DNA of 64,000 nucleotides, from the NCBI GenBank assembly GCA_963749755.1, contig CAVVOK010000010.1, positions 101,301 to 165,300 of the forward strand, read 5' to 3'. The notes beneath the pieces were generated by a model, which was not told the origin of the DNA, made no database searches, and saw only the letters and a list, made by a program, of their open reading frames with translations. This document shows, piece by piece, positions 21,284-64,000 of the stretch (the first letter of the stretch is position 1; every line of letters begins with the position of its first letter). The position numbers and the translations under genes were made by a program. This stretch comes from an uncultured Alphaproteobacteria bacterium. Its GTDB lineage: Bacteria; Pseudomonadota; Alphaproteobacteria; Rhizobiales; Kaistiaceae.

Positions 21284-23318
21284 TCAGCCCCGGAACATGA
21301 GCCAGGTGACCAGCGCGGCGACGCCGATCAGCATGGCGAAAGCATAGTGGTAGAGGTACCCCGACTGCAGCCGCACGACCCGTGAGGTCACGTCGAGCAC
21401 CCGCGCCGATACGCCGTCCGGCCCGAACCCGTCGATCAACCAGCCGTCGCCGCGCTTCCATAGGAAGCGCCCGAGCCACTTCGCCGAACGGACGAACAGC
21501 ACGTCGTACAATTCGTCGAAGTACCATTTGTTGAGCAGGAACCGGTACAGCCAGTCGTTCCGCTGCGCGAGCAGCCGCGGCGTTTCCGGCGAGTAGAGGT
21601 AGAAATATGCCGCGATCGCCACGCCGATGATCATCATGGTCGTCGGAGCCAACACGACCCACAGCGGGGCGTGTCCCTCCTCGTGCCCGAGCACCAGTGC
21701 ACCGCGCCAGAAATCCTCCGCGCCGCCGCCGATGAATGTGCCGGCGAATATCAGGCCGGCGAGCAGAGAGCCGGCGCCGAGCACGTAGAGCGGGACCATC
21801 ATCACCGGCGGCAACTCGTGGATGTGCTTCACCACCTCCGCCGGTGCGCGCGTGCGCCCGTGGAACGTCATGAAGATCAGGCGCCACGAGTAGAACGCCG
21901 TCATCAGCGCCGCGATAACCGTCAGCCAGAATGCGTAGGCGGCGAGCGGGTTGGCACCGCCGAACGCGGCCTCGATGATCGCGTCCTTGGAGAAATAGCC
22001 GGCGGTCAGCGGGAAGCCGGTCAGCGCCAGCGTGCCGATCACCATCATCCAGTAGGTGACCGGAATGTGCTGCCTGAGGCCGCCCATCTTGCGCATGTCC
22101 TGCTCGTCGGACACGGCGTGGATCACAGAGCCCGCGCCGAGGAACAGGAGCGCCTTGAAGAAGGCGTGCGTGAACAGGTGGAACATGCCGACGCCGAACG
22201 CACCGACGCCCATCGCCACGAACATGTAGCCAAGCTGCGAGCACGTCGAATACGCGATGACGCGTTTGATGTCGTTTTGCGACGAGGCCGACGCTCGCCG
22301 CGAAAAACGCGGTCGTCGCACCGAAAAACGTCACCACCGTCAGCGCCGTCGGCGAGAGTTCGAACAGCGGCGAAAGCCGCGCGACCATGAATACGCCCGC
22401 GGTCACCATCGTCGCGGCGTGGATCAGCGCGGACACCGGCGTCGGGCCTTCCATGGCGTCCGGCAGCCACGTGTGGAGCAGGAACTGGGCCGACTTGCCC
22501 ATCGCGCCCATGAACAGAAGCAGGCAGACGACCGTCAACGCGTCCAGGTCCCACGACAGGAAATGCATCGTGGTGCCCTCGACCGCCGTGACGTTGGCGA
22601 AGATCGTTTCGTAGTCGATCGAGTTGAACAGAACGAACACGCCGAAGATGCCGAGCGCGAAACCGAAATCGCCGATGCGGTTGACGATGAACGCCTTGAT
22701 CGCGGCAGCGTTGGCCGAGGGTCGCGTGTACCAGAAGCCGATCAGCAGGTACGAGGCGAGGCCCACGCCCTCCCAGCCGAAATAGAGCTGCACGAGGTTG
22801 TCGGACGTGACCAGCGCCAGCATGGCGAAGGTGAACATCGATAGGTAGGCGAAGAACCGCGGCCGGAACGGGTCGTGCGCCATGTAGCCGATCGAGTAGA
22901 TGTGCACGAGCGACGAGACCGTAGTCACGACGACGAGCATCACCACCGTCAGCGTATCGACCCGGATCGCCCAGTCGACCTCGAGCGTTCCCGACGAGAA
23001 CCAGTTGAAAAGCGGCACGCGACCCGCCGGCTCGTCGCCGAACATGACAGTGACGAACGCGACCCACGACAGGATCGCCGACACCACCAGGAATCCCGAC
23101 GTGATGATTTCGGCCGGGCGCGAGCCCTCCACCGCTTCGTGGCCGTGCCCGTCATGCTCTTCGTCGTGCCCCCGGCGCGCATGTATCCGGCCATGATGGC
23201 CATCGTGACCGGCCGCATCCGCTTCCCCGCCGGGATACCGTCGCCGCGCGCCGACCAGCGAGATGAAGCCGGCGATGATCGCGCCGAGCAGGGGCAGAAG
23301 GACAATCGCCTGATACAT
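21284..23318 (-). CDS. nuoL: NADH-quinone oxidoreductase subunit L, one apparent 1-nt insertion near 22280
   Basis: The N-terminal half is the start of ORF 19968..23318 (..[33 protein letters not shown]). The rest is ORF 21284..22321 ([20 protein letters not shown]..). Removing one base at about 22280 joins them. Confidence 0.9.
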
Positions 23319-37508: not shown

Positions 37509-39592
37509 ATGGGTCCTACGACGGCAGCGATGGAACGCCCGGCGGCCACCGCCGCGGCCGCGCCGGTTTCGGTCCCGCCGGACGCCCTTGAATCGCCGCC
37601 GTCGGAGCTCCGCAGCGCACCGATCATGATCCAGAACGTCAAACCCGAGCTCGACTGCGGCCGCTACCCCGTCAAGCGCGAGGTCGGGCGACGTGCTCGA
37701 CGTCTGCGCCGAGTCTTCAAGGAGGGCCACGATCAAGCATCGCGTGCCGTCCTCAAGGTGCGGCGCGCCGACCAAGTCGACGTGGCACGAAACGCGGATG
37801 ACGCTGGCCGAGCCCGGCCTCGACCGCTGGCGCGGTCAAGTGCGGCTCGAGGAGAACACGCGCTATCGCTACACCATCGAGGCTTGGCCGGATGCGTTAC
37901 GAAATCGTGGCGCGCGGAGATTGAGAAGAAGCACGCCGCCGGGCAGGCGGTCGCGCTGGAGCTGCGGGAGGGGCGCGACATCGTCGCGGCCGCGCGCGAC
38001 CGCGCCACGGGCGACGACCGCAGCAAGCTCGACGCGGCGCTCGCCGAGATCGACGCAGCGATCAGGCGAGGCCGACCGCCTCGCGCTGCTCGTTGCGCAT
38101 GCGCGTCAGCCGCCTCATCGCCCGCGCGCCCGATCGTGCCCGCGCCGTCGCTACCCACACGAGTTGGAGGTGATGGTCGACCGGACCGGCCGCGCGCTTC
38201 GCCGCCTGGTACGAGATGTTTCCCCGCTCGCAGGGCACCGACCCGGCGAAGAGCGCAACGTTCGACGACTGCATTTCGCGCCTCGACGAGATTCGCGCCA
38301 TGGGCTTCGACGTGGTCTATTTGGTGCCGATCCATCCGATCGGCCGCGTCCACCGCAAGGGCCGCAACAACGCGCCGCGCGCCGAGCCCGGCGATCCCGG
38401 CAGCCCCTACGCCATCGGCTCCGTCGAGGGCGGGCACGACGCCATCCACCCCGATCTCGGCACGATCGACGATTTTCGCGCCTTCGTCGCCGCCACCAAG
38501 GAGCGCGGCATGGAGGTGGCGCTCGATTTCGCCATCCAGTGCGCGCCCGACCACCCGTGGGTGAAGGAGCATCCGGAGTGGTTCGTCTTCCGGCCGGATG
38601 GGTCGATGAAATACGCCGAGAACCCGCCCAAGAAGTACGAGGACATCGTCAACGTCAATTTCTACGGACCGCATCGCCAAGCCCTGTGGGAGGCGCTGCG
38701 CGACGTCATCGTATTCTGGATCGACGCCGGCGTCGCCATCTTCCGCGTCGATAACCCCCACACCAAGCCGGTGCCGTTCTGGGAGTGGCTGATCCGCGAC
38801 ATCCAGGAGCGGCATCCGGAGGTGATCTTCCTCGCCGAGGCGTTCACCCGGCCCGCAGTGCTGAAGATGCTGGCCAAGGTCGGCTTCAGCCAGTCGTACA
38901 CCTATTTCACCTGGCGCAAATTCAAGGGCGAGCTCACCGACTATCTGACCGAGCTGACGCAATCGGAATGAGCGAGTATCTTCGCCCGAACTTCTTCGCC
39001 AACACGCCCGACATCCTGCCTGCGTTCCTTCAGACGGGCGGGCGGCCGGCGTTCCAGATCCGGTTGGTGCTCGCCGCGACGCTCTCCAGCGTCTACGGCA
39101 TCTACAACGGCTTCGAGCTGTGCGAGGCGGCGGCGCTTCCCAACAGCGAGGAGTACGCCAACTCGGAGAAGTACGAATACAAGGTCTGGGATTGGGATCG
39201 CCCGGGCAACATCAAGGACTATGTCGCACGGGTGAACGCCATCCGCCGCGACAATCCCGCCCTGCACTATCTCAAGAACCTGACATTCCATCACGCGGAT
39301 GACGACAACGTGCTGTTCTACGGCAAGATGAGCGAGGACGGCGCGCAACATCGTCTTCATCGCCGTCAACCTCGATCCGTTCGATGCTCACGAGGCGAAC
39401 CTTGAGTTTCCGCTCGCCGCCATGGGCGTACCGGAGGGCGAGGCCTTCGAGGTCGAGGAACTGCTGACCGGCAGCAAGCATTTGTGGCGCGGCGCGGTCC
39501 AGCGCGTCCGGCTCGATCCGCACGCCAACCCGGCGGTGATCTTCCGCGTGGCGAAATGGACGCGCGTCGACTACCGCGAGCCCTGTTTCTGA
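37509..39592 (+). pseudogene. glgE: alpha-1,4-glucan:maltose-1-phosphate maltosyltransferase, at least 8 frame changes
   Basis: Fragments across the three frames are IMIQNVKPELDCGRYPVKREVG / DVLDVCAE / VFKEGHDQ / WHETRMTLAEPGLDRWRGQV..YTIEAW / WRAEIEKKHAAGQ / ELEVMVDR / a long intact block [38 protein letters not shown] / [17 protein letters not shown].. / NIVFIAVNLDPFDAHE..DYREPCF-stop. The start coordinate is approximate. Confidence 0.85.
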
Positions 39593-39594
39593 CG

Positions 39595-42500
39595 ATGGCC
39601 GAAACCCAAACCCGCTGGTACCAGGACGCGATCGTCTACGAGGTGCACGTCAAGTCGTTCTACGACTCCAACGGCGACGGAGTGGGCGATTTCGCCGGGC
39701 TGACGGAGAAGCTCGACTACCTCACCGATCTTGGCATCACCGCGATCTGGCTGCTGCCGTTCTACCCTTCGCCGCTCCGCGACGACGGCTACGACATCGG
39801 CGAATATCGCAGCGTCAACCCGACTTACGGCACGATGCGCGACTTCCGTCGCTTCGTGCGCGAGGCGCACAAGCGCGGGCTGCGCGTCATCACCGAACTC
39901 GTCGTCAACCACACCTCGGACCAGCACCCGTGGTTTCAGCGCGCGCGCAAGGCGAAGCCCGGCTCCGCCATGGCGCAACTTCTACGTCTGGAGCGACACG
40001 GACCAGCGCTACCAGGGCACGCGCATTATCTTCCTCGACACAGAGGCCTCCAATTGGGCCTGGGACCCCGAGGCGCAGTCGTATTACTGGCACCGCTTCT
40101 ACTCGCACCAGCCGGATCTCAACTTCGCCAATCCGCGGGTGGTGAAGGAAATCATCCGTGTGATGGAACACTGGATCGAGATGGGGGTCGACGGCCTGAG
40201 GCTCGACGCCGTGCCATACCTTTGCGAGCGGGAGGGCACCAACAATGAAAACCTCCCCGAGACCCACGCGGTGATCCGCGAAATCCGCGCCAACCTCGAC
40301 GCGCGCTATCCCGATCGCATGCTGCTCGCGGAGGCCAACCAGTGGCCGGAGGACGTGTTGCCCTATTTTGGCAACGGCGATGAATGCCACATGGCGTTCC
40401 ACTTCCCCCTCATGCCGCGCATCTACATGGCGCTGGCCCAGGAGGATCGTCATCCCATCACCGACATCATGCGCCAAACACCGGACGTGCCGGACGGTTG
40501 CCAGTGGGCGATCTTCCTGAGGAACCACGACGAACTGACGCTGGAAATGGTCAGTGACCGCGAGCGCGATTACCTATGGCGAACCTACGCCACTGACGCC
40601 CGCGCGCGGTTGAACCTCGGCATACGCCGTCGTCTGGCGCCGCTGCTCCAGAACGACCACCGCAAGATCCAACTGCTCAATAGCCTGCTCATGTCCATGC
40701 CCGGCACGCCGATCCTCTATTACGGCGACGAGATCGGCATGGGCGACAATATCTACCTCGGCGACCGCGACGGTGTGCGCACGCCCATGCAATGGTCGCC
40801 GGACCGCAACGCCGGCTTTTCCCGCGCCGACCCCGCCCGCCTGTTCCTGCCGCCGATCATGGACCCCGTGTTCGGGTACGAGGCGGTCAACGTCGAGGCG
40901 CAGAACCGAAGCCCGTCGTCGCTGCTGAACTGGCTCAAGGGCCTCATCGCCGCCCGAAAATCGACGCGGGCGTTCGGCCGGGGAACGCTCGCCTTCCTTC
41001 GCCCGGGCAACCGCAAAGTGCTCGCCTACCTTCGGCAGGACGAGAACGACACCGTCCTGTGTCTGGCGAACCTGTCGCGCGCGCCCCAGCCGGTGGAGCT
41101 CGACCTCGCTGAATTCAACGGCCGCGTGCCGGTCGAGTTGCTCGGCCGCAGCGCGTTCCCGCCGGTCGGCCAACTTCCGTACTTTGTGACGCTGCCAGCG
41201 TACGGCTTCTACTGGTTTCTGCTCGCCGAAGAGGCCAAGGCGCCGAGTTGGCACGAAACCATTGCCCCAACGACCGCGGAGTTGGTCACGCTGGTGATCC
41301 CCCAGGGCTGGGCGAGCCTGACGACTGGCTCCGCCGGCAAGTCGCTCCAGGAGCGGAGCCTTCCCGACTACCTCACACCGCGACGTTGGTTCGCCGCCAA
41401 GGGCGACCGTGCCCAGTCGATGAGCCTGTCGCCATTAGCCGAGTTCCCGGTTGACGGCGCCAACGCACTCCTTGCCACCGTTTCGGTCTCCCTCGAGCAA
41501 CGGCGCCAGCCGCAGACCTACGGACTGCCGCTGATGATCGCGTGGGAGGAACTGAGTGACGATGGTCCGCACCCGCCGGACTCCGCTACCGTCGCCCGCG
41601 TCCGCCGTGGAGCAAAGTCGGGCGTGCTGTTCGATGCGACCGCCGACGACAGCTTCGTTCGCGCCCTGGTCGCGGCGATACGCGACAACCGCACCATCGC
41701 TGCGACCGAGGGTGGCGAGGTCGCCTTCACCGCCACCAGCGCATTCCCTCCTGAGGTTGATCTCGCGGCGCTGCCGGTTGCCCGCGGCACGAGCGAACAG
41801 TCGAATACCTCGGTGCGCATCGGCGAGGACCTGAGCCTCAAGGTCTATCGCCTGCTCCAGCAGGGCGTGCATCCGGAGGTTGAGATCGGTCATCACCTGA
41901 CCGAGGTTGCGAACTTCGCCAATACACCGCCGCTTTTCGGCTCGATCGTCCACCGCGACCGGGCGGGCGCACCGACCGCCCTCGCCGTGCTCTCGCGCTA
42001 CGTTGTCAATCAGGGCGACGGCTTTACAACGACGCTGGATTACCTACGGCGCTTCCTGGAAGAGGCGGACCTGCTCACCACCGACGCCGTTGGCGACATG
42101 GCCGAACGTCATCGCGGGTTCGTCGACCGCATGACGACGCTCGGCCGCCGCACTGCCGAGCTGCATCGCGCCTTCGCCGTGCCGACCACAGACAGCGCCT
42201 TCAAACCCGCTCCGACTACGGAGCGGGATCTCAAGCGCTGGCGCAGCGCCGCTCGTGATCAAGCGAACAAAGCGTTCGCGCTGCTCCGCCGCGTGCGTTC
42301 GTCTCTGTCGCCGGACGATAAAGACCGCGCGCGCCAAGTGCTCCGCGCCCGCGCCGCCGTCCTCGCCCGCATCAATGCCGCCGTGCCGGATCGACTCGAT
42401 GCGGTCAAGACCCGCTACCACGGCGACATGCACCTCGGTCAGGTGCTGGTGGTGCACGACGACTTCATCTTCGTCGACTTCGAGGGGGAGCCGGCGCGGC

Positions 42501-42877
42501 CGCTCGCTGAGCGTCGCGTCAAGCACTCGCCGCTCCGCGACGTCGCGGGCATGTTGCGCTCGTTCCACTACGTCGAGGCGACCGCCATGCGCGAACGTCT
42601 TGCGATCCGCGCCGAGGCTGCCAAAGCGCTCGCGCCAATGGCCGAGGACTGGCGGCGCCGTGCGCACGAGGGCTTCATGGCGGGCTATCTCGCGGCAATC
42701 GGCGACTGCCCGTCCGTCCCCACCGATGCGGCGCTCCGCGACAAGCTCATCTTCCTCTTCCTCATCGAGAAGGCCCTCTACGAAATCGGCTACGAGGGCG
42801 CCAACCGTCCGGATTGGATTGGCATTCCGATGGAAGGCGTACTCGCGCTCCTCGCGCTGCCGGAGGGAACTGCCTGA
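39595..42877 (+). CDS. treS: trehalose synthase fused to maltokinase (TreS-Pep2), one apparent 1-nt insertion near 39965
   Basis: [55 protein letters not shown] is in one frame. [23 protein letters not shown].. continues for about 970 further aa in ORF 39731..42877. The C-terminal roughly 450 aa is kinase-like (..[19 protein letters not shown]). Confidence 0.88.
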
Positions 42878-57472: not shown

Positions 57473-58738
57473 CTACCAGGCCGCGCCTTTCAGCCGCTGC
57501 AGCTTGGTGTCGAGCTGCGCGAGGTTCTGTTCGGCGGAGCCGTTACCGGACAGCGTCTCGTGGACGGCGGTCCAGAACTCCTTCGACACCTCGTTGTAGC
57601 TCTTCTGCGTCGGCGCCGACGGCCGCGGCACCGCATTAGCGAGCACGTCCTTCCACGGCGGAATGATCGGCTGCGCCTTCGCGATGTCCGGATCGTCGTA
57701 GAGCGCCGGGATCGTCGGCAGGTTCGAGTTGTTGATCGCGCGATATTTCTGCGCCTCGGGCGAGGCCAGGAACTTCACGAGATCGATCGCGGCGTCCTTG
57801 TGCTGGCTGAACGCGGAAACCGCGAGGTTCCACCCACCGAGCGTGGCGGCGGAACGGTCACCGGACGGCCCGACGGGCAGCGTGGTCACGGCGAACTTGC
57901 CCTTGATCGGCGAATCCTCGCCGTTGCCGAGCGAGTAGGCGTACGGCCAGTTGCGCATGAACACGGCTTGTCCGGTCTGCCACACGCCGCGCGATTCCTC
58001 CTCGCCATACGAGAGCACACCCGGGGGCGAGATCGTGCCGATCCAGCCCTTGACCATATCGAGCATCTGGGCGGCCTTCGCGTTGTTGATCGAGATCGTG
58101 CCGTCCGCCTCGACGATCTGACCGCCGCCGTTCGACTTGATCCACTCCAGCGCGTCACAGGTCAGGCCCTCGTACGATTTGCCCTGGAACACGAAGCCCC
58201 ACATGCCGGCATTCCCGGCCGCGCGCTCCTTGTCCATGATCATCTTGGCCGTCGCGGCCATCTCTTCCCAAGTCTTCGGCACCGACGCGCCGTACTTGTC
58301 GAGCAGGTCCTTGCGGTAGTAGAGCGCCGGCGCGTCGGTGAACATCGGCAATGCCACGAGCTTGCCGTTCACGGTCTGCGACTCGATGATCGCCGGAAAG
58401 TGGTCCTTCGCCACATCCTTCGTCGCCTCGGTCAGATCGACGAAGTTCGCCGCGAGCTGCGGCGCCCAGATCACGTCCGTGCGGTAGACGTCGATGTCGC
58501 TGTTTTGCGCGGCGAGCCAGAGGCGGTACTGCGCGAATTGGTCGGTGCTCGACGACGGCATCGACACGATGTCGACGGTGTTGTCCGTCTTTTGCTGGTA
58601 TTGATCCAGCACGTCGCGGAGCATCTGGAGGTCGGCTCCGGTCGAGCCGGACACAATCGAGAGTTTTTCGGCGTTTGCCCCGGTCGCCGCGAGCAGCAGC
58701 CCGGCGACCGTCGCGAAAAGGGCCTCGCGAAACATCAT
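57473..58738 (-). CDS. extracellular solute-binding protein, probably disaccharide (trehalose/maltose-like) specific
   Basis: A 421-aa ORF with the signal peptide MMFREALFATVAGLLLAATGANA and family 1 SBP features. The ligand guess rests only on resemblance to ThuE-type proteins and the neighbouring alpha-glucan/trehalose genes. Confidence 0.8.
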   Translation of the reverse strand: MMFREALFATVAGLLLAATGANAEKLSIVSGSTGADLQMLRDVLDQYQQKTDNTVDIVSMPSSSTDQFAQYRLWLAAQNSDIDVYRTDVIWAPQLAANFVDLTEATKDVAKDHFPAIIESQTVNGKLVALPMFTDAPALYYRKDLLDKYGASVPKTWEEMAATAKMIMDKERAAGNAGMWGFVFQGKSYEGLTCDALEWIKSNGGGQIVEADGTISINNAKAAQMLDMVKGWIGTISPPGVLSYGEEESRGVWQTGQAVFMRNWPYAYSLGNGEDSPIKGKFAVTTLPVGPSGDRSAATLGGWNLAVSAFSQHKDAAIDLVKFLASPEAQKYRAINNSNLPTIPALYDDPDIAKAQPIIPPWKDVLANAVPRPSAPTQKSYNEVSKEFWTAVHETLSGNGSAEQNLAQLDTKLQRLKGAAW

Positions 58739-59005
58739 CGTTCTCTCTCCTTGTCTATGGCGAAACAGCGATAGGGCTCTGGCGGCCCCTTGCGACCGTT
58801 CGCAGCGTTTTCACCCCCGAATTTTTTCTCGTTTCTCTCTTGTCTTCCGGGCCGGATCACCGGCGCGGGGCATGTGCGTCCCACGCGGCAAGACCGGCCG
58901 TCGAATGTGCTACATCGCGCCGCTGGGCGCCGCGAAGGAACACACGCGAGACCGAGCAGCGTCCCGCACCCGACCCCGCGTGTCAAGGAAGCCCACGGTG
59001 GCCGG

Positions 59006-59527
59006 TTACCTGCCGGTGGCGTGCTTTTGCAACCGGTCGCTGAAAGCGAGCAGGAAGCGCAGGCTGCGTTGTGTCTCCGGCTTGGACAGAAGCCCGACCA
59101 TCGCCATCACGCCACCGCGCGACGGCTCCGCGGCGGTTTCCTCCGCCGCCTCGTCGAGCGCCAGCCTCGCGTGATCGGCGAGTTCGCCCATCGCCTCGCT
59201 GCCGAGCGTGGACACCATCTGCTCCGTGAAAGCGAACAGCCGCTCCACCATGCTGTCGGTGAGCGCGGCGCGCGCGCCGTGCGCGAGCATGATGAGGTCG
59301 AACAGGGTATCGATCGCGCCGACCTTGTGCGCCTGGGTGATCCTATCCAATGCGTTGTGGACCGCAGCACTCGTCTCCGGATCGTTCAGCCGGTCGATCA
59401 ACTCCAACGCGCTCGCCCCGGTCGCCGCGAGCCGCTCGACCATGGAATCGGTCAGCGCCTCGCGCGCCGCGGCCATGAGCCGCGCCAGATCGTCCACGGG
59501 CGCATTGCTGAGGGTGTTATCGCTCAT
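59006..59527 (-). CDS. DUF1641 domain protein
   Basis: A 173-aa ORF with an internally duplicated ..ALTDSMVERL.. helical repeat. GGGAGGA precedes the ATG. It lies directly downstream of the flavoprotein, as is usual for DUF1641. Confidence 0.7.
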   Translation of the reverse strand: MSDNTLSNAPVDDLARLMAAAREALTDSMVERLAATGASALELIDRLNDPETSAAVHNALDRITQAHKVGAIDTLFDLIMLAHGARAALTDSMVERLFAFTEQMVSTLGSEAMGELADHARLALDEAAEETAAEPSRGGVMAMVGLLSKPETQRSLRFLLAFSDRLQKHATGR

Positions 59528-59537
59528 CGCGTCCTCC

Positions 59538-60678
59538 CTAGAGCAACCCGCGCGCCGACAACCAGTAGAGCCGGTTGTAGGCGAGCTTGAACCAATGGAT
59601 CATCTGCGACGGCGGGCCGGGGTTCGGCGGGGTGGTATAGTTGAACCAGACGTACGTGCCGTTGTTCAGGCCGGTCTCCACAAAGCAGAAGACCTTGCCG
59701 TCGTAGTCGCGCGCCCAGCGATCCTCTTTCAGGAGCGAGGCGAGGTTGTCCACGATCGTGTCGGCCTCGAAGTGGGCCGTCGATCCCGCCTTGGAGATCG
59801 GCAGGTTGGTCGTGTCGCCCACCACGAACACGTTGTTCGAGCCCTCGCGCAGCAGCTTGCCGCGCTCGGTAGGCACCCAGCCGCCGGCCCCGAGGTTCGA
59901 GTTCGAGAATGACCTGCTGCCCGCTGTGCGGCGGCACCGTGATCAGCAGGTCATAGGGAAGCGTCGTCCCTTCCTCCGAGGTGATCGTCTTCGCCTTCGG
60001 ATCGACCGACTTGGTGTTGAAGAACGTCTCCGACTTGATGCCGCTCCGCTGGAACTCGGGCACCGCCCAGTTGGCGACCGGCTCCAGCGTGTGCAAACGC
60101 CCGACTGGATAGGTGTAGGTGATCTCGCTCTTGTCGAGCAGCCCGCGACCCGCGAGGTAATCGCGTAGCATGAAGGTGATCTCGAGCGGCGCCACCGGAC
60201 ACTTGTGCGGCACGTTGATGTTGACCACCACTTTGCCGCCCTCGAATTTCGCCAGCGCGTCGCGCATCTTGCGCGCGCCGTCGAGGTCGTAGAACCAGTG
60301 TCCGCCCTCGGTCATGCCGGGTATGTTGTCCGGCCGGATGCGCGAGCCCGTGGCGATCACCAGGAAATCGTACCCGTACGTCTTGCCGGATTCGGTCGTG
60401 ACCGCCTTCTTGTCCACGTCGATGTTCTTCGCCGGGTCCACGAGGTACGGCACGCGGCGGTCGAGCACCTTGCGCTGGTCGCGGAAGAGGTCGGACTCGC
60501 GCATCCGCCCGAACGGCACGTAGAGCAGGCCCGGCTGATACATGTGCTTGTCGGACGCGCCGATCATGGTGATCGCAACGCTGCCGCTGGCGAGTTCGTC
60601 GCGCAACTGGCGGCAAAGGCCGTTGGCGATAATCGTCCCCGCCAACCCGCCGCCGACGATCAGTATCTGTTTTGCCAT
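59538..60678 (-). CDS. FAD-dependent pyridine-nucleotide-disulfide oxidoreductase, SQR-like, one apparent 1-nt insertion near 59909
   Basis: The N-terminus is MAKQILIVGGGLAGTIIA (a GxGxxG motif), then ..CPVAPLE..VPPHSGQQVI. The next frame continues SNSNLGAGGWVPTERGKLLREGSNNVFVVGDTTNLP.. (ORF 59538..59876). Confidence 0.75.
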
Positions 60679-60751
60679 GGCCGTTTCTCCGCCTTTCCTT
60701 CTTGCTTGTTGGCCGCGCGCGGCGGCTTGGCGCGTCGCCGTCCGGCGATCG

Positions 60752-60982
60752 CTACTTTGCCTTCTTCACCACGATGCTCCACACCCCGTCGTTTTGCGTC
60801 ATGCCGACCATCTCGTGATGAACCTTGTTCACCCACTCGGGAATATCGTTGGCCGAACCCTTGTCGGTCGACAGGATCTCGATCTCGTCCCCTACCTCGA
60901 CCAGCTTCAGCGCCGCGATCAGCTCCATCAGCGGACCCGGGCAGAAGGCCCCCCGCGCGTCGATCTTCGTCCTTGTCGTCAT
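60752..60982 (-). CDS. TusA/SirA-family sulfur carrier protein (CPGP type)
   Basis: A 76-aa ORF, IDARGAFCPGPLMELIAALKLV. Confidence 0.8.
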   Translation of the reverse strand: MTTRTKIDARGAFCPGPLMELIAALKLVEVGDEIEILSTDKGSANDIPEWVNKVHHEMVGMTQNDGVWSIVVKKAK

Positions 60983-61002
60983 CGTTCAGGCGTCTCCGCT
61001 AT

Positions 61003-61401
61003 CTACAGCGTGACGAATTGCCCGCCCTCGGCGTCGGACAGGAACTTGGTGAGCCCGAGCGGACCGTCGAACAGGCCCGGCTCGAGATGGTATTCGTCCC
61101 AGCCGGACACATCGAGCGCCATGGAGCAGGCCCACATCTTAAGGTCGCCGAGTTCCTTCCCCTGGCGGAAGAGCGTGATCGCGTCCGGCGCCCGCTTCTG
61201 CTTCAGCAAGTCGGAAAACATGCCCCCGCGGTACCGTTCCTCCGCCGGTGCATCCTTCGCGAAGGCGAACATCGCGTTCATGCTGACGAACACCTCGACC
61301 GGCCGCTCCGACACCGCGCCGACCGACGCGATCATCGCCGCCATGTGTACCTTCTCGTGCTCGCCGGAGCACAAGAGGACGTAGAGAGACAGCGTGGCCA
61401 T
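61003..61401 (-). CDS. DsrE/DsrF-like family protein
   Basis: A 132-aa ORF, MATLSLYVLLCSGEHEKVHMAAMIA..MWACSMALD. It has the size and pattern of DsrE-fold sulfurtransferase-like proteins. Confidence 0.65.
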   Translation of the reverse strand: MATLSLYVLLCSGEHEKVHMAAMIASVGAVSERPVEVFVSMNAMFAFAKDAPAEERYRGGMFSDLLKQKRAPDAITLFRQGKELGDLKMWACSMALDVSGWDEYHLEPGLFDGPLGLTKFLSDAEGGQFVTL

Positions 61402-61422
61402 AGAGCGCGGTCTCCTTGCCCG

Positions 61423-61650
61423 TCACGACATCCGCTTTATGAGGAATGAGAACACGTCGCCCTCGTGCTTCAATTCCATCAGCTCGTTACCCGTCGTGCG
61501 GCAGAACGCCTCGAAGTCCTTCACCGAGCCCGGGTCGGTGGCGAGGACCTCGAGCGTCCCGCCAATCGCCACGTCTTTCAGCGCCTTCTTGGCGCGCAGG
61601 ATCGGCAGCGGGCAGTTCAGTCCTTTCACGTCGAGAACCTGGTCGGCCAT
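61423..61650 (-). CDS. tusA: TusA sulfur carrier protein
   Basis: A 75-aa ORF, LDVKGLNCPLPILRAKKALKDV, carrying the canonical CPxP active site. Confidence 0.85.
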   Translation of the reverse strand: MADQVLDVKGLNCPLPILRAKKALKDVAIGGTLEVLATDPGSVKDFEAFCRTTGNELMELKHEGDVFSFLIKRMS

Positions 61651-61686
61651 GAATATTTCCTCGTTCCGATTTCTCTTGCCGCAAGA

Positions 61687-62187
61687 TCAGATGAACAGGT
61701 TGATGTCGCTCTTTGTCGCGGTCTCGATGAATGTCGCCGCGCCGCCGAGCACCGGCCCCTCGATCATGTCATCGGGATTGTACTCGAACATGTCCATCGT
61801 CATCTGACAGGCGATCATTTCCACGTCGGCTTCGAGCGCCATCGATCTCAGGTCCTCGATCGACGCGATGCCCTTTTTCTTGATCAGGTTCTTCATCATC
61901 GCGCTCGCCGCCGCGTCGACGCCCGGGATAGCGGAGATGATGTTGGGCATGCCGATGTGCATGCCCATTATCGGCATGGACATCGCCGGGTTGCCCAGCG
62001 TCGTAACCGTCAGGTCGAGCTTCTTCTTGAGCAGCGTCAGACCGTAGAAGGTGAAGAACATCGATACCTCAAGGCCCATCGCCGCCGCGGTAGTCGCGAG
62101 GATGAACGGAGGATACGCCCAGTCGAGCGACCCCTTCGTGACGATCATAGACAGCTTCTTGGTGTTGCTTCCAACGTCGTTTGCCAT
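61687..62187 (-). CDS. DsrE3-type (DsrE/DsrF/DrsH-like) sulfurtransferase
   Basis: A 166-aa ORF, ..KLSMIVTKGSLDWAYPPFILATTAAAMG..IACQMTMDMF. Confidence 0.75.
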   Translation of the reverse strand: MANDVGSNTKKLSMIVTKGSLDWAYPPFILATTAAAMGLEVSMFFTFYGLTLLKKKLDLTVTTLGNPAMSMPIMGMHIGMPNIISAIPGVDAAASAMMKNLIKKKGIASIEDLRSMALEADVEMIACQMTMDMFEYNPDDMIEGPVLGGAATFIETATKSDINLFI

Positions 62188-62249
62188 TGGCAGTCCTCCA
62201 CGTCGGACGCGGCCCCGCTCCCGTCCGTGTCAGTATTTACGCGCCCTCT

Positions 62250-62699
62250 TCACGCCGCCGACGCACAGCCGGCGAATTGATCGGCAGTCATCTTTGCCTC
62301 GTAAGGCTCGGCAACGGCGGTGCCGGGGATGAGGTTGGCCTTCGCCGCCGCCCAATCGACGGGCTTCACCTTGACCATCCAGCCTTCCCCATAGGGGTCG
62401 GAGTTCGCGAGCTTCGGATTGCCCGACAGCGCCTCGTTGACTTCCAGCACCTCGGCCGGAAACGCGATCTTCGCCGGCCCGACCCATTTGCCGGACTCGA
62501 CCGTCGCGCACGATTTGCCTCCGTCCAGCGACTTGCCCGGCTTTTTCGCCGTGAAAGCGACCAACGGTCCAGCCATGGCGGCGGCGACCGTGGTCATGCC
62601 GAGCGTCACCGTGCCGTCGGCGTTCTCGCGGTACCAGATGTTGTTCTCGACGTCGTAGAGCAGATCGTCGGGAAGGTTGCAGCCACGGACCGAAGGCAT
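62250..62699 (-). CDS. lbpA: GcvH-like lipoate-binding protein (LbpA type)
   Basis: A 149-aa ORF with an H-protein fold: ..ATVESGKWVGPAKIAFPAEVLEVNEAL..NSDPYGEGWMVKV. The candidate lipoyl lysine is in ESGKW. No other glycine-cleavage genes are nearby. Confidence 0.8.
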   Translation of the reverse strand: MPSVRGCNLPDDLLYDVENNIWYRENADGTVTLGMTTVAAAMAGPLVAFTAKKPGKSLDGGKSCATVESGKWVGPAKIAFPAEVLEVNEALSGNPKLANSDPYGEGWMVKVKPVDWAAAKANLIPGTAVAEPYEAKMTADQFAGCASAA

Positions 62700-62714
62700 T
62701 GACGAACTCCGATT

Positions 62715-63176
62715 TCAGGTATGAACGGTCGCCGCCGTCTCGTTGAGACGCAGCGGACGTGACGCGCAGCAGAATTCGCCGAGACCGGCGACCTCCAGCT
62801 TGCCGTCGATGAAAAGGACCAGGTGCCGCGCCACCATGGCGGCGAGGCGGACACGCTGCGCGATGTCGTCAGCCGCCGGTTCCACGCGAATGCAGTTGTA
62901 GGCGTACGCCAATTCACGGCACGTCTCGCGGCACGCGTTGAAGGTCGCGTCGCCCCGTGCGCCTTGACGGTGGAGCGCGAGCAGCCGGAAGCCCTCGACG
63001 GTATTGCCCGTGGGCGTCTTTCCCTTCGCGAGAAGCCAGCTTTCGAGCGCCGCCTCGCCGATGGCGAGAAGCTCGTCGGCCAGCGCCGGCGCCGCCTCGA
63101 CGAGATCGGCGTCGGCCACTGCCACGATCGCGTCGAGCCGGTCCATCGGCGTCTGCGCGGTCGCGCTATCGCTCAC
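62715..63176 (-). CDS. hypothetical protein, translationally coupled to hdrB
   Basis: This is the C-terminal 153 codons of ORF 62715..63476. The GTG at 63176 overlaps the hdrB TGA (GTGA). It is predicted helical and Ala/Leu-rich, with cysteines in NACRETCRELAYAYNC and EFCC. I recognise no family. Confidence 0.55.
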   Translation of the reverse strand: MSDSATAQTPMDRLDAIVAVADADLVEAAPALADELLAIGEAALESWLLAKGKTPTGNTVEGFRLLALHRQGARGDATFNACRETCRELAYAYNCIRVEPAADDIAQRVRLAAMVARHLVLFIDGKLEVAGLGEFCCASRPLRLNETAATVHT

Positions 63177-64000
63177 GCCAGCCTCCGCGCTCGCAGCAAG
63201 TCGCGCAACTCCGACATGTTCTCGTGCACGCCCACCTTCCGCGCCGACAGCCCGAGCGCGATGCCCAGGAGCTGCGTGAAGTAGAGGATCTTCACCTTCG
63301 TCTTTTTCCCGAACACCTTCTCCGCGCGCATCTGATGCATCTCGAGGCCCGTGTGGCAGGTCGGGCATTCGGTCGCGATCACGTCCGCGCCGCAGGCCTC
63401 CGCCGTCGTCAGCAGGTTCAGCACAAGCTTGGTTGATGTGTCGGAATCCGACAGCGTATGGGCGCCACCGCAGCATGCCGTCTTCAGCGGATACTCGACG
63501 TTCTCCGCGCCGGCCGCCGCCAAGAGATCGTCCATGAAGTGCGGCTTCGACGTCAATTCCGAACCCGGCCCCTTGTCCTTCTCCGGGAAGATATGCCGCG
63601 GGCGCGTGTACATGCAGCCGTAGTAGTTAGCGACCTTCAGGCCCTTCAGCGAATTGGTGACGCGCGCCTTCAGTCCTTCCTCGCCGATCGCGTGCTTGAT
63701 CCAGTCGAGCGCGTGGATCGTCTCGACCTTGCCGGCCTCGTAGGTCTTGTGGCCGGCCTTGGCCGACAGGCGGGCATTCACCTCACGCGACGGCTGATCG
63801 TTCGCGAGGTCGTATTCCGCCTTCTTTAGGTTGTGATAGCAGCCGTTGCAGGGCGCCATCACCGTTTTGAAGCCCATGTCCTCCGCGATCGAGAGGTTCC
63901 GCGCCGAGAGGTATGTCTGAAGCTTCGGATCGACGTTCTTGACCTCCATCGCTCCGCAGCAGTTCCAGTTTTCCAGTTCCACCACGTCGAGTCCGAGCGC
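63173..64000 (-). CDS. hdrB: heterodisulfide reductase subunit B-like protein (two CCG domains); the 5' end lies beyond the window
   Basis: NWNCCG..APCNGCYHNL and KTACCGG..ATECPTCHTG form a tandem CCG-domain pattern. The reading frame continues upstream of the ORF-track start to the window edge (ALGLDVVELENWNCCG). Confidence 0.75.
   Translation of the reverse strand, partial: ALGLDVVELENWNCCGAMEVKNVDPKLQTYLSARNLSIAEDMGFKTVMAPCNGCYHNLKKAEYDLANDQPSREVNARLSAKAGHKTYEAGKVETIHALDWIKHAIGEEGLKARVTNSLKGLKVANYYGCMYTRPRHIFPEKDKGPGSELTSKPHFMDDLLAAAGAENVEYPLKTACCGGAHTLSDSDTSTKLVLNLLTTAEACGADVIATECPTCHTGLEMHQMRAEKVFGKKTKVKILYFTQLLGIALGLSARKVGVHENMSELRDLLRARRLA

Follow-up and report, generated by a model that had tools for sequence, protein, structure and literature searches.

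What does an enzyme resembling sulfide:quinone oxidoreductase (SQR) do at the end of an operon for cytoplasmic sulfur oxidation, and why is its gene followed by one for a protein of the DUF1641 family? The question is raised by positions 59006-64000 of a stretch of 64,000 nucleotides (nt), referred to here as the window, which comes from an uncultured alphaproteobacterium of the family Kaistiaceae (positions 101,301 to 165,300 of contig CAVVOK010000010.1, GenBank assembly GCA_963749755.1). A first-pass annotation, made from the letters of this DNA without database searches, had described the region as the downstream end of an sHdr/LbpA operon carrying two pairs of sulfur carriers, an SQR-like flavoprotein and a DUF1641 protein, and had suggested a longer persulfide relay than that of the core system or a branch to the quinone pool. 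Comparison with related loci reveals that the last four genes, which encode the second carrier pair (DsrE-like and TusA-like) together with the flavoprotein and the DUF1641 protein, are an autonomous module. We propose, with middling confidence, that this module encodes a cytoplasmic sulfide:quinone oxidoreductase with a DUF1641 conduit, whose sulfane sulfur would be handed to TusA/DsrE carriers and, in this particular locus, to the sHdr-LbpA system.

An autonomous module of four genes

Relatives of the flavoprotein were collected by scanning one genome per species, which gave 412 matching stretches, and the best 80 loci were analysed. The order DsrE-like, TusA-like, flavoprotein and DUF1641 is kept in all 80 distinct loci wherever the flanking sequence suffices. 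The module lies downstream of shdr and lbpA genes and in the same direction, as in the window, in 31 of the 80 loci; shdr genes are nearby in another orientation or on the other side in 8, and dsrE2, alone or with tusA, is all that precedes the module in 6, mostly on short contigs. In 20 other loci, where no less than 6 kb of upstream and 4 kb of downstream sequence is covered, the module stands alone, and 15 more show it alone with short flanks; no recurrent neighbours were found among these lone modules. In this regard, the second carrier pair, the flavoprotein and the DUF1641 protein had been seen at first as an elaboration of sHdr, a view that has to be abandoned since at least 20 genomes carry the module without shdr genes within about 10 kb.

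The hosts are mainly Alphaproteobacteria (Xanthobacteraceae, Pseudolabrys, Stellaceae, Roseiarcus, Rhodospirillales, Microbaculum sp. FT89 and Roseospirillum parvum 930I, the last two being cultured carriers), and some are Gammaproteobacteria. A search of 1.84 billion representative proteins returned 254 matches to the flavoprotein family at E <= 1e-30, and thousands of metagenome proteins match the module. Among these more distant relatives, a flavoprotein of 54% identity (P0362) is encoded after DsrE and TusA and before a protein of 220 amino acids (aa) that matches the DUF1641 family (hhalign probability 97.7%), another of 38% identity (P0375) occurs in the series DsrE, TusA, flavoprotein and PF07849 protein, and a third of 45% identity (P0365), on a short contig, is followed by a PF07849 protein. 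PF07849, the Pfam entry for DUF1641, bears the short name 'HMP' in the precomputed annotation of two loci (L086, L090), and the family may have been renamed in newer Pfam releases.

Both carriers of the module have conserved cysteines. The DsrE-like protein matches Pfam DrsE_2 with 26 bits, and a profile built from 18 orthologues matches PDB entry 2qs7 over its full length (E 2e-14), which confirms the DsrE fold, and also finds 3pnx, a 'putative sulfurtransferase DsrE'; the active-site cysteine of the protein is conserved, its Cys92, in the motif WACSMAL, being invariant and its Cys11 nearly so. The TusA-like protein reaches 78 bits with Pfam TusA, and Cys14 of its CPGP motif is invariant in 78 sequences. 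As in the window, the tusA-like gene is found directly upstream of the flavoprotein gene in related loci. Linkage to SQR is the criterion that defines the DsrE4 group (PMC4175335); the DsrE-like gene of the module is likewise linked to an SQR-like gene, but it lies upstream of it, with tusA in between.

A regulator of the ArsR family (HTH_5) with two cysteines is encoded near the module in 13 loci, in two of them directly 3' of the DUF1641 gene (L019, 3670-4083; L042). It presumably resembles the SqrR/SoxR/sHdrR group that senses sulfane sulfur.

Such an autonomous module, found in many unrelated contexts, might serve a stand-alone detoxification of sulfide or reactive sulfur, in which the sulfane sulfur is parked on the module's own carriers, to be assimilated or disposed of, and the adjacency to shdr results from the shuffling of clusters, with no dedicated flow to sHdr. 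The ArsR-type regulators of those 13 loci point in the same direction, and so do two published proposals: SQR-linked DsrE4 proteins have been assigned to detoxification (PMC11094781), and the SQR-TusA-DsrE2 operon of Methylacidiphilum has been read in this way (PMC10205796). Set against this is the occurrence of the module beside shdr in 39 of the 80 loci, in 31 of which it forms one co-directional string with gaps like those of the window, where no terminator-like site separates the module from tusA and dsrE2; moreover, cross-transfer between carriers would be likely under the published model of a sulfur-transferase network. We consider a purely detoxifying module rather unlikely. It is compatible with much of the evidence, and the main difference from the proposed sulfide oxidase is the handing over of sulfur to sHdr.

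An SQR-like flavoprotein and its candidate DUF1641 partner

The closest solved structures to the flavoprotein (Pfam Pyr_redox_2, 53 bits) are human SQR (E 5e-28) and the SQR of Acidianus ambivalens (E 3e-20). In the alignment its Cys160 and Cys331 fall on the catalytic cysteines of the human enzyme, and both are invariant in 81 sequences; the sequence GGGLAG at residues 9-14 marks the N-terminal FAD-binding fold. No second GxGxxG motif for NAD(P)H occurs in the region 145-160, and no signal peptide was detected. Type III SQRs have their redox cysteines at about Cys159 and Cys339 (PMC13047784), and the top NCBIfam match of the flavoprotein is a type III model, NF049943, over model positions 1-355 of 406. 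This model describes a selenoprotein subtype; a selenoprotein was rejected here, as there is no in-frame TGA in the corrected frame (see below) and the score stays under the cut-off.

The peculiarity of the enzyme lies at its C-terminus. Homology to relatives of 406-434 aa stops near residue 355, whereas relatives of about 380 aa align to the very end, so that 24-27 residues follow the homologous core, versus about 50-75 in the longer proteins. The C-terminal amphipathic membrane-binding helices of type III SQRs, in the plural, were not found in the flavoprotein, whose tail is a single aromatic amphipathic helix that is invariant across the family; the last 40 residues (...PPNPGPPSQMIHWFKLAYNRLYWLSARGLL) are its most conserved block (0.96-0.97). 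Longer relatives of 406-433 aa are followed by a DsrC/TusE-like gene in three loci (L087, 2317-4452; L088, 2432-4567; L089, 1644-3606), all three without a DUF1641 neighbour; in the first two, DsrE genes and genes for a thioredoxin and an ArsR-type regulator follow as well. Protein sulfur carriers seem to be a general companion of this SQR lineage.

The DUF1641 gene adjoins the flavoprotein gene in 81 of 81 loci and in 4 of the 6 distant relatives sampled. Its product matches PF07849 with 29.5 bits (gathering score 21) over residues 131-162, and 9 of 24 orthologues pass this model individually. The profile match to YjlC/Ncp, the DUF1641 protein of Bacillus subtilis, spans about 130 residues, nearly the full length, and a direct comparison of the DUF1641 protein with Ncp gives an hhalign probability of 64% (E 6.5e-5). 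Three members of the family, HucM, ForE and Ncp, have been visualised by cryo-EM as hydrophobic tubes that act as the scaffold of a soluble enzyme, are in contact with the membrane and deliver quinone to that enzyme (PMC13524794; for ForE, PMC8808070). The conduits described so far serve a hydrogenase (Huc, from mycobacteria), a formate dehydrogenase and an NDH-2. In the last case, the Ncp-dependent Ndh of B. subtilis is devoid of the residues with which other NDH-2 enzymes bind the membrane, and it has a C-terminal domain that binds Ncp (PMC13524794). The suggestion that the locus is linked to the quinone pool finds real support in this structural work.

A DUF1641 partner is typical of B. subtilis Ndh-Ncp (YjlD-YjlC), and the flavoprotein does match YjlD weakly (E 9e-4), which could be taken to mean that the pair is an NADH:quinone oxidoreductase of the NDH-2/Ncp type with no role in sulfide oxidation. 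This can hardly be right: SQRs score better than NDH-2 enzymes by at least 20 orders of magnitude, both SQR cysteines are invariant, the second GxGxxG needed for NADH is missing, TusA and DsrE-like genes always flank the flavoprotein gene, and Ndh-Ncp has been reported from no phylum other than Bacillota. In the survey that reported this, SQRs appeared merely as an outgroup.

Another use of the pair would be as an electron outlet of sHdr-LbpA, close to the branch to quinone that the first-pass annotation had in mind. The flavoprotein would then re-oxidise dihydrolipoyl-LbpA, or accept electrons from sHdr, and pass them to quinone through the DUF1641 protein; it and lipoamide dehydrogenase are members of one flavoprotein superfamily. 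The tight, co-directional linkage behind shdr-lbpA in 31 genomes would suit this role, DUF1641 proteins are known to link soluble enzymes to quinone, and type II clusters carry a proposed quinone-reducing branch of their own, EtfAB/EMO (PMC11094781). On the other hand, the module occurs in at least 20 genomes with neither shdr nor lbpA within about 10 kb, it is always accompanied by its own TusA and DsrE-like carriers and never by LbpA, its enzyme has cysteines of the SQR type and not the CxxxxC of lipoamide dehydrogenase, and its relatives are paired with DsrC-like and DsrE proteins and not with lipoyl proteins. On balance an electron outlet is improbable.

Altogether, these features are best accommodated by the conduit-fed sulfide oxidase proposed above. 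We infer that the flavoprotein, with both SQR cysteines, no second GxGxxG and no signal peptide, would oxidise sulfide in the cytoplasm, and that the electrons would travel through FAD to a quinone supplied by an oligomeric hydrophobic tube of DUF1641 subunits, in the manner of HucM, ForE and Ncp. The short and nearly invariant aromatic helix at the C-terminus would be the likely docking element, taking the place of the longer membrane-binding tail of other SQRs. A conduit-fed SQR is proposed because this pattern, a shorter and invariant C-terminus together with an obligatory DUF1641 neighbour, parallels that of Ndh-Ncp. Sulfane sulfur arising at the two cysteines would be unloaded to the TusA-like and DsrE-like carriers of the module and not to a small thiol, a hand-over put forward because type III SQRs are already known beside sulfur-carrier genes, as in the H2S-induced type III SQR-TusA-DsrE2 operon of Methylacidiphilum (PMC10205796). 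Where the module lies behind shdr-lbpA-dsrE2-tusA, sulfur could pass through the DsrE2/TusA carrier network to sHdr-LbpA, which oxidises protein-bound sulfane sulfur to sulfite in the cytoplasm.

Several observations weigh against this proposal. The flavoprotein scores 339 bits with NF049943, well under the cut-off of 525, and its gene is broken as sequenced in this genome. The similarity of the partner to B. subtilis YjlC/Ncp is marginal (for the 24-orthologue profile, 9snk_B E 0.005 and 9pxk_E E 0.009). Its AlphaFold2 (AF2) monomer, computed from 51 sequences, is poor (predicted local distance difference test score, pLDDT, 63.5; predicted template modelling score, pTM, 0.25) and has no Foldseek match in the PDB up to April 2026; this model is uninformative, as is to be expected for a single subunit if the tube is oligomeric. 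Menaquinone is the quinone of the DUF1641 complexes characterised so far, which come from Gram-positive bacteria, whereas Alphaproteobacteria use ubiquinone. Moreover, a relative of 420 aa with a different C-terminus has a DUF1641 protein encoded directly downstream (L084, 1281-3169; Pfam 23.3 bits), with no DsrE or TusA gene upstream. This case softens the rule that the short tail goes always and only with DUF1641, and the pairing of SQR-like and DUF1641 proteins is therefore wider than the four-gene module. Finally, adjacency to shdr is no proof that sulfur is handed over.

The sHdr-LbpA operon tail and a broken reading frame

The positions of the features are collected in Table 1. The nine minus-strand genes were confirmed where they had been placed, with successive gaps of -4, 15, 62, 36, 21, 20, 73 and 10 nt; a purine-rich stretch resembling a Shine-Dalgarno sequence precedes every start, and the phase of the GC content at third codon positions (GC3) gives a coding signal on the minus strand only. 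Profile searches with Pfam and NCBIfam upheld 8 of the 9 gene assignments, all Pfam matches of the window proteins being at or above the gathering score. Moreover, the entire gene order is found again in 31 other genomes and is therefore far beyond chance.

Table 1. Coordinates of the features in the window, with the evidence for each
Feature	Position	Strand	Basis
shdrB2, 3' 275 codons	63173-64000, gene continues past window end	-	open frame to 64000; Pfam CCG
Conserved 153-aa protein	62715-63176	-	GTG start, 4-nt overlap with shdrB2 stop
lbpA, lipoate-binding GcvH paralogue, 149 aa	62250-62699	-	Pfam GCV_H
dsrE2 sulfur carrier, 166 aa	61687-62187	-	NCBIfam NF047629; Pfam DrsE_2
tusA, 75 aa, partner of dsrE2	61423-61650	-	Pfam TusA
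DsrE-like carrier, 132 aa, module gene 1	61003-61401	-	Pfam DrsE_2
TusA-like carrier, 76 aa, module gene 2	60752-60982	-	Pfam TusA
SQR-like (type III-related) flavoprotein, module gene 3, 379 aa after removing one base	59538-60678	-	Pfam Pyr_redox_2
Frameshift site in flavoprotein gene, one extra A	59901-59904	-	GAAC versus GAC/GAT/AAC in orthologues
DUF1641 protein, 173 aa, module gene 4, candidate quinone-conduit/scaffold partner	59006-59527	-	Pfam PF07849
Terminator-like hairpin, about 37 nt past DUF1641 stop	58944-58969	-	terminator scan
nuoL, single-base insertion	21284-23318, junction about 22290	-	N-terminal part ...FFAASVGLV then out of frame; C-terminal part in other frame
glgE C-terminus, single-base insertion	38785-39592, junction about 39345	+	frame shift
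treS-maltokinase fusion, single-base insertion	39484-42877, junction about 39960	+	frame shift

The upstream part of the region, with shdrB2, a protein with four conserved cysteines, lbpA, dsrE2 and tusA, is predicted to be the 3'-terminal segment of a type I sHdr-LbpA operon, which agrees with the initial description. The CCG protein is 92% identical to sHdrB2 of a complete cluster (L001), whose order is dsrE (126 aa)-shdrC1-B1-A-H-C2-B2-unknown-lbpA and whose NCBIfam/Pfam pattern fits HdrC, HdrB, a short HdrA, a hypothetical protein, HdrC and HdrB. The complete set shdrC1-B1-A-H-C2-B2 precedes the same downstream genes in 31 orthologous loci, and the window holds the 3' part of shdrB2 only. 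Two CCG stretches give this product 73 bits in Pfam, and its five solved relatives are all methanogen HdrB (E 7e-32 to 2e-26). NCBIfam alone fails to separate HdrB (149 bits) from SdhE (145 bits); with these scores nearly equal, it is the synteny with shdrC2 that places the protein on the HdrB side and not with LutA, GlcF or SdhE, a placement that the first-pass annotation had named as refuting its reading.

The gene for LbpA follows downstream of shdrB2, as in known shdr-lbpA clusters. LbpA matches Pfam GCV_H with 106 bits and is set apart from canonical GcvH by falling under both NCBI cut-offs for that protein (104 versus 117; 69 versus 116), and its lipoyl lysine, Lys71 in ESGK, is invariant in 32 orthologues. 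Related loci carry genes for lipoate assembly upstream: an LplA-B_cat ligase, two Radical_SAM proteins and a flavoprotein like geranylgeranyl reductase.

The next gene had been labelled dsrE3 and proved to be dsrE2, since its 166-aa product scores 220.9 bits with the equivalog model NF047629 (SulfCarrDsrE2), over a cut-off of 210; it has 166 bits with Pfam DrsE_2 and the conserved cysteine of IACQMT. Its partner TusA (Pfam TusA, 83 bits) carries a CPLP motif with Cys13, and the dsrE2-tusA pair is kept upstream of the module in 37 loci. This first carrier pair, which had been regarded as an added feature, adds nothing new, because TusA and DsrE proteins are a regular feature of shdr-lbpA clusters, about half of which have DsrE2 (PMC11094781).

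Two other genes are found around this part of the operon in relatives. A putative sulfate-export transporter of the YeiH family is encoded between lbpA and dsrE2 in several loci (L001, 7421-8437; also L002, L036, L039, L033, L040 and L044), where the window has a 62-nt gap only. Elsewhere the interval from the lipoate-assembly genes to dsrE2 holds a gene of the histone deacetylase family (Pfam Hist_deacetyl, 221 bits; L051, 1898-3043; also L034, L048, L050, L052 and L056), the product of which might remove an acyl group from a modified lysine.

The protein of 153 aa is a second conserved and unexplained component of this version of the shdr cluster, encoded between shdrB2 and lbpA in 31 of 31 co-directional loci. 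It has invariant cysteines in the arrangement Cys82-x3-Cys86 and Cys136-Cys137, is identical to a relative (P0241) that was likewise called as 153 aa, and has 5861 homologues; among the 120 that were listed, every source name is 'hypothetical protein'. No match was found in Pfam or NCBIfam. The AF2 model is a confident helical bundle (pLDDT 84.5) with no Foldseek match below E 0.7, and no PDB profile match was obtained. Clusters of this type may have in it one more component that binds sulfur or a metal.

The whole string had been taken as a single transcription unit. No terminator-like hairpin lies on the coding strand before the end of the DUF1641 gene, and the sole minus-strand site in 58600-64000 is the hairpin that follows it, which is likely to be the end of the unit; the scan behind this is no better than chance, with 5 sites on both strands versus 4.3 expected, so that its support for the claim is weak. 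A gap of 267 nt downstream of the DUF1641 gene leads to an unrelated operon for a sugar ABC transporter. Neither an Rfam match in 58000-64000 nor a sigma-70 promoter in the scan for such sites was found.

The flavoprotein gene, of 1141 nt, has its frame broken by one extra base, which the first-pass annotation had missed. The N-terminal 258 residues and a C-terminal open reading frame of 112 aa (59538-59876) both match one family of 379 aa with 80-89% identity, the GC3 phase switches between 59820 and 59970, and a DNA comparison with 14 orthologues locates the lesion at GAAC, where the other sequences read GAC, GAT or AAC. When one A is removed, the sequence becomes V-I-L-D-S-N-L-G, an exact match to a relative (P0004). 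A programmed frameshift was rejected, as the site lacks a slippery heptamer and 81 of 81 orthologues, of 377-379 aa, are in frame.

The break is very probably an error of assembly and neither a pseudogene nor a programmed shift, because four single-base insertions interrupt conserved genes within the 64 kb and breaks occur in related metagenome-assembled genomes (MAGs) as well. All four frameshifts in the window are +1 insertions, and the broken nuoL, a subunit of complex I, points in particular to indel errors of the assembly. The closest relatives come from long-read MAGs that belong to a single project. In two of these, the orthologues of the gene for the 153-aa protein end out of frame (...SPRRHGGAAPRSLHRR and ...GTRRVLLLIARPSPT). 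This suggests that indel errors are common in that data set. Basecalling at CcrM sites (GANTC) was considered as their general cause and discarded, for the motif is matched at the corrected flavoprotein site, as GACTC, and at none of the other three.

A true pseudogene, in a module that is decaying in this genome and has left the carriers and the DUF1641 protein behind, would account for the one-base insertion and for the lack of an intact frame in the deposited sequence, and the insertion site is not a long homopolymer. We hold decay to be very unlikely, given that every orthologue is in frame, that no second lesion is present and the downstream frame is still 100% orthologue-like, that at least three other conserved genes, nuoL included, have single-base insertions in the same 64 kb, and that comparable breaks affect orthologues in related MAGs from the same project.

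Relation to known systems and significance

Parts of this locus are already known: the shdr-lbpA-dsrE2-tusA segment, the linkage of SQR to DsrE and TusA in outline, and DUF1641 conduits for three other enzymes. Like the type I sHdr-LbpA systems of Hyphomicrobium denitrificans, Acidithiobacillus and Aquifex, the window has sHdrB2, LbpA, DsrE2 and TusA in one string, and its closest relatives have the full dsrE-shdrC1B1AHC2B2 set and lipoate-assembly genes upstream. It differs from those systems in the 153-aa four-cysteine protein between shdrB2 and lbpA and in the SQR-like/DUF1641 module fused downstream.

The likeness to Ndh-Ncp, HucM and ForE lies in a small, all-helical protein with a C-terminal DUF1641 region that is encoded right after a peripheral quinone-reducing enzyme, and, in the case of Ndh-Ncp, in an enzyme C-terminus that departs from the membrane-binding tail of its relatives. 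In the module, by contrast, the partner is SQR-like instead of an NDH-2, a hydrogenase or a formate dehydrogenase, the pair comes with two sulfur carriers, and ubiquinone is the quinone of the hosts, which are Alpha- and Gammaproteobacteria.

With the set MFUM_v2_0219-0221 (SQR-TusA-DsrE2) of Methylacidiphilum fumariolicum, the module shares a cytoplasmic SQR of the type III lineage with two canonical cysteines and carriers of the TusA and DsrE families, and with the DsrE4 group, whose genes follow that of SQR in Sulfolobales, the linkage of a DsrE-family gene to one for SQR or an SQR-like enzyme. Unlike in these sets, the enzyme has a shorter (379 aa) and different C-terminus, the carriers are encoded upstream and not downstream, and DUF1641 is obligatory. 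No description of sHdr together with DUF1641 was found in the literature searched, nor was an SQR partner for a DUF1641 protein described in the DUF1641 literature searched; the pairing of SQR-like and DUF1641 proteins, the four-gene module and its docking behind shdr-lbpA appear to be undescribed.

A bolder formulation, possible rather than probable, would make the SQR-like enzyme and its partner a fourth class of DUF1641 conduit, the first in sulfur metabolism and in Gram-negative users of ubiquinone. Here the membrane tail would have been traded for a tube and joined to a private TusA/DsrE relay, which, when docked to shdr-lbpA, would provide a fully protein-channelled route from H2S to sulfite.

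If the proposal is true, the newly recognised DUF1641 strategy, in which a protein tube takes quinone out of the membrane and houses its reduction, would be extended in both chemistry and taxonomy by a sulfide oxidase of soil and marine Proteobacteria. In turn, an SQR-like enzyme with its own TusA/DsrE acceptors behind shdr-lbpA in a Xanthobacteraceae-like clade would be a candidate entry of sulfide sulfur to the sHdr-LbpA pathway. The module makes these two points, the reach of the DUF1641 strategy and the entry of sulfide sulfur to sHdr-LbpA, directly testable.

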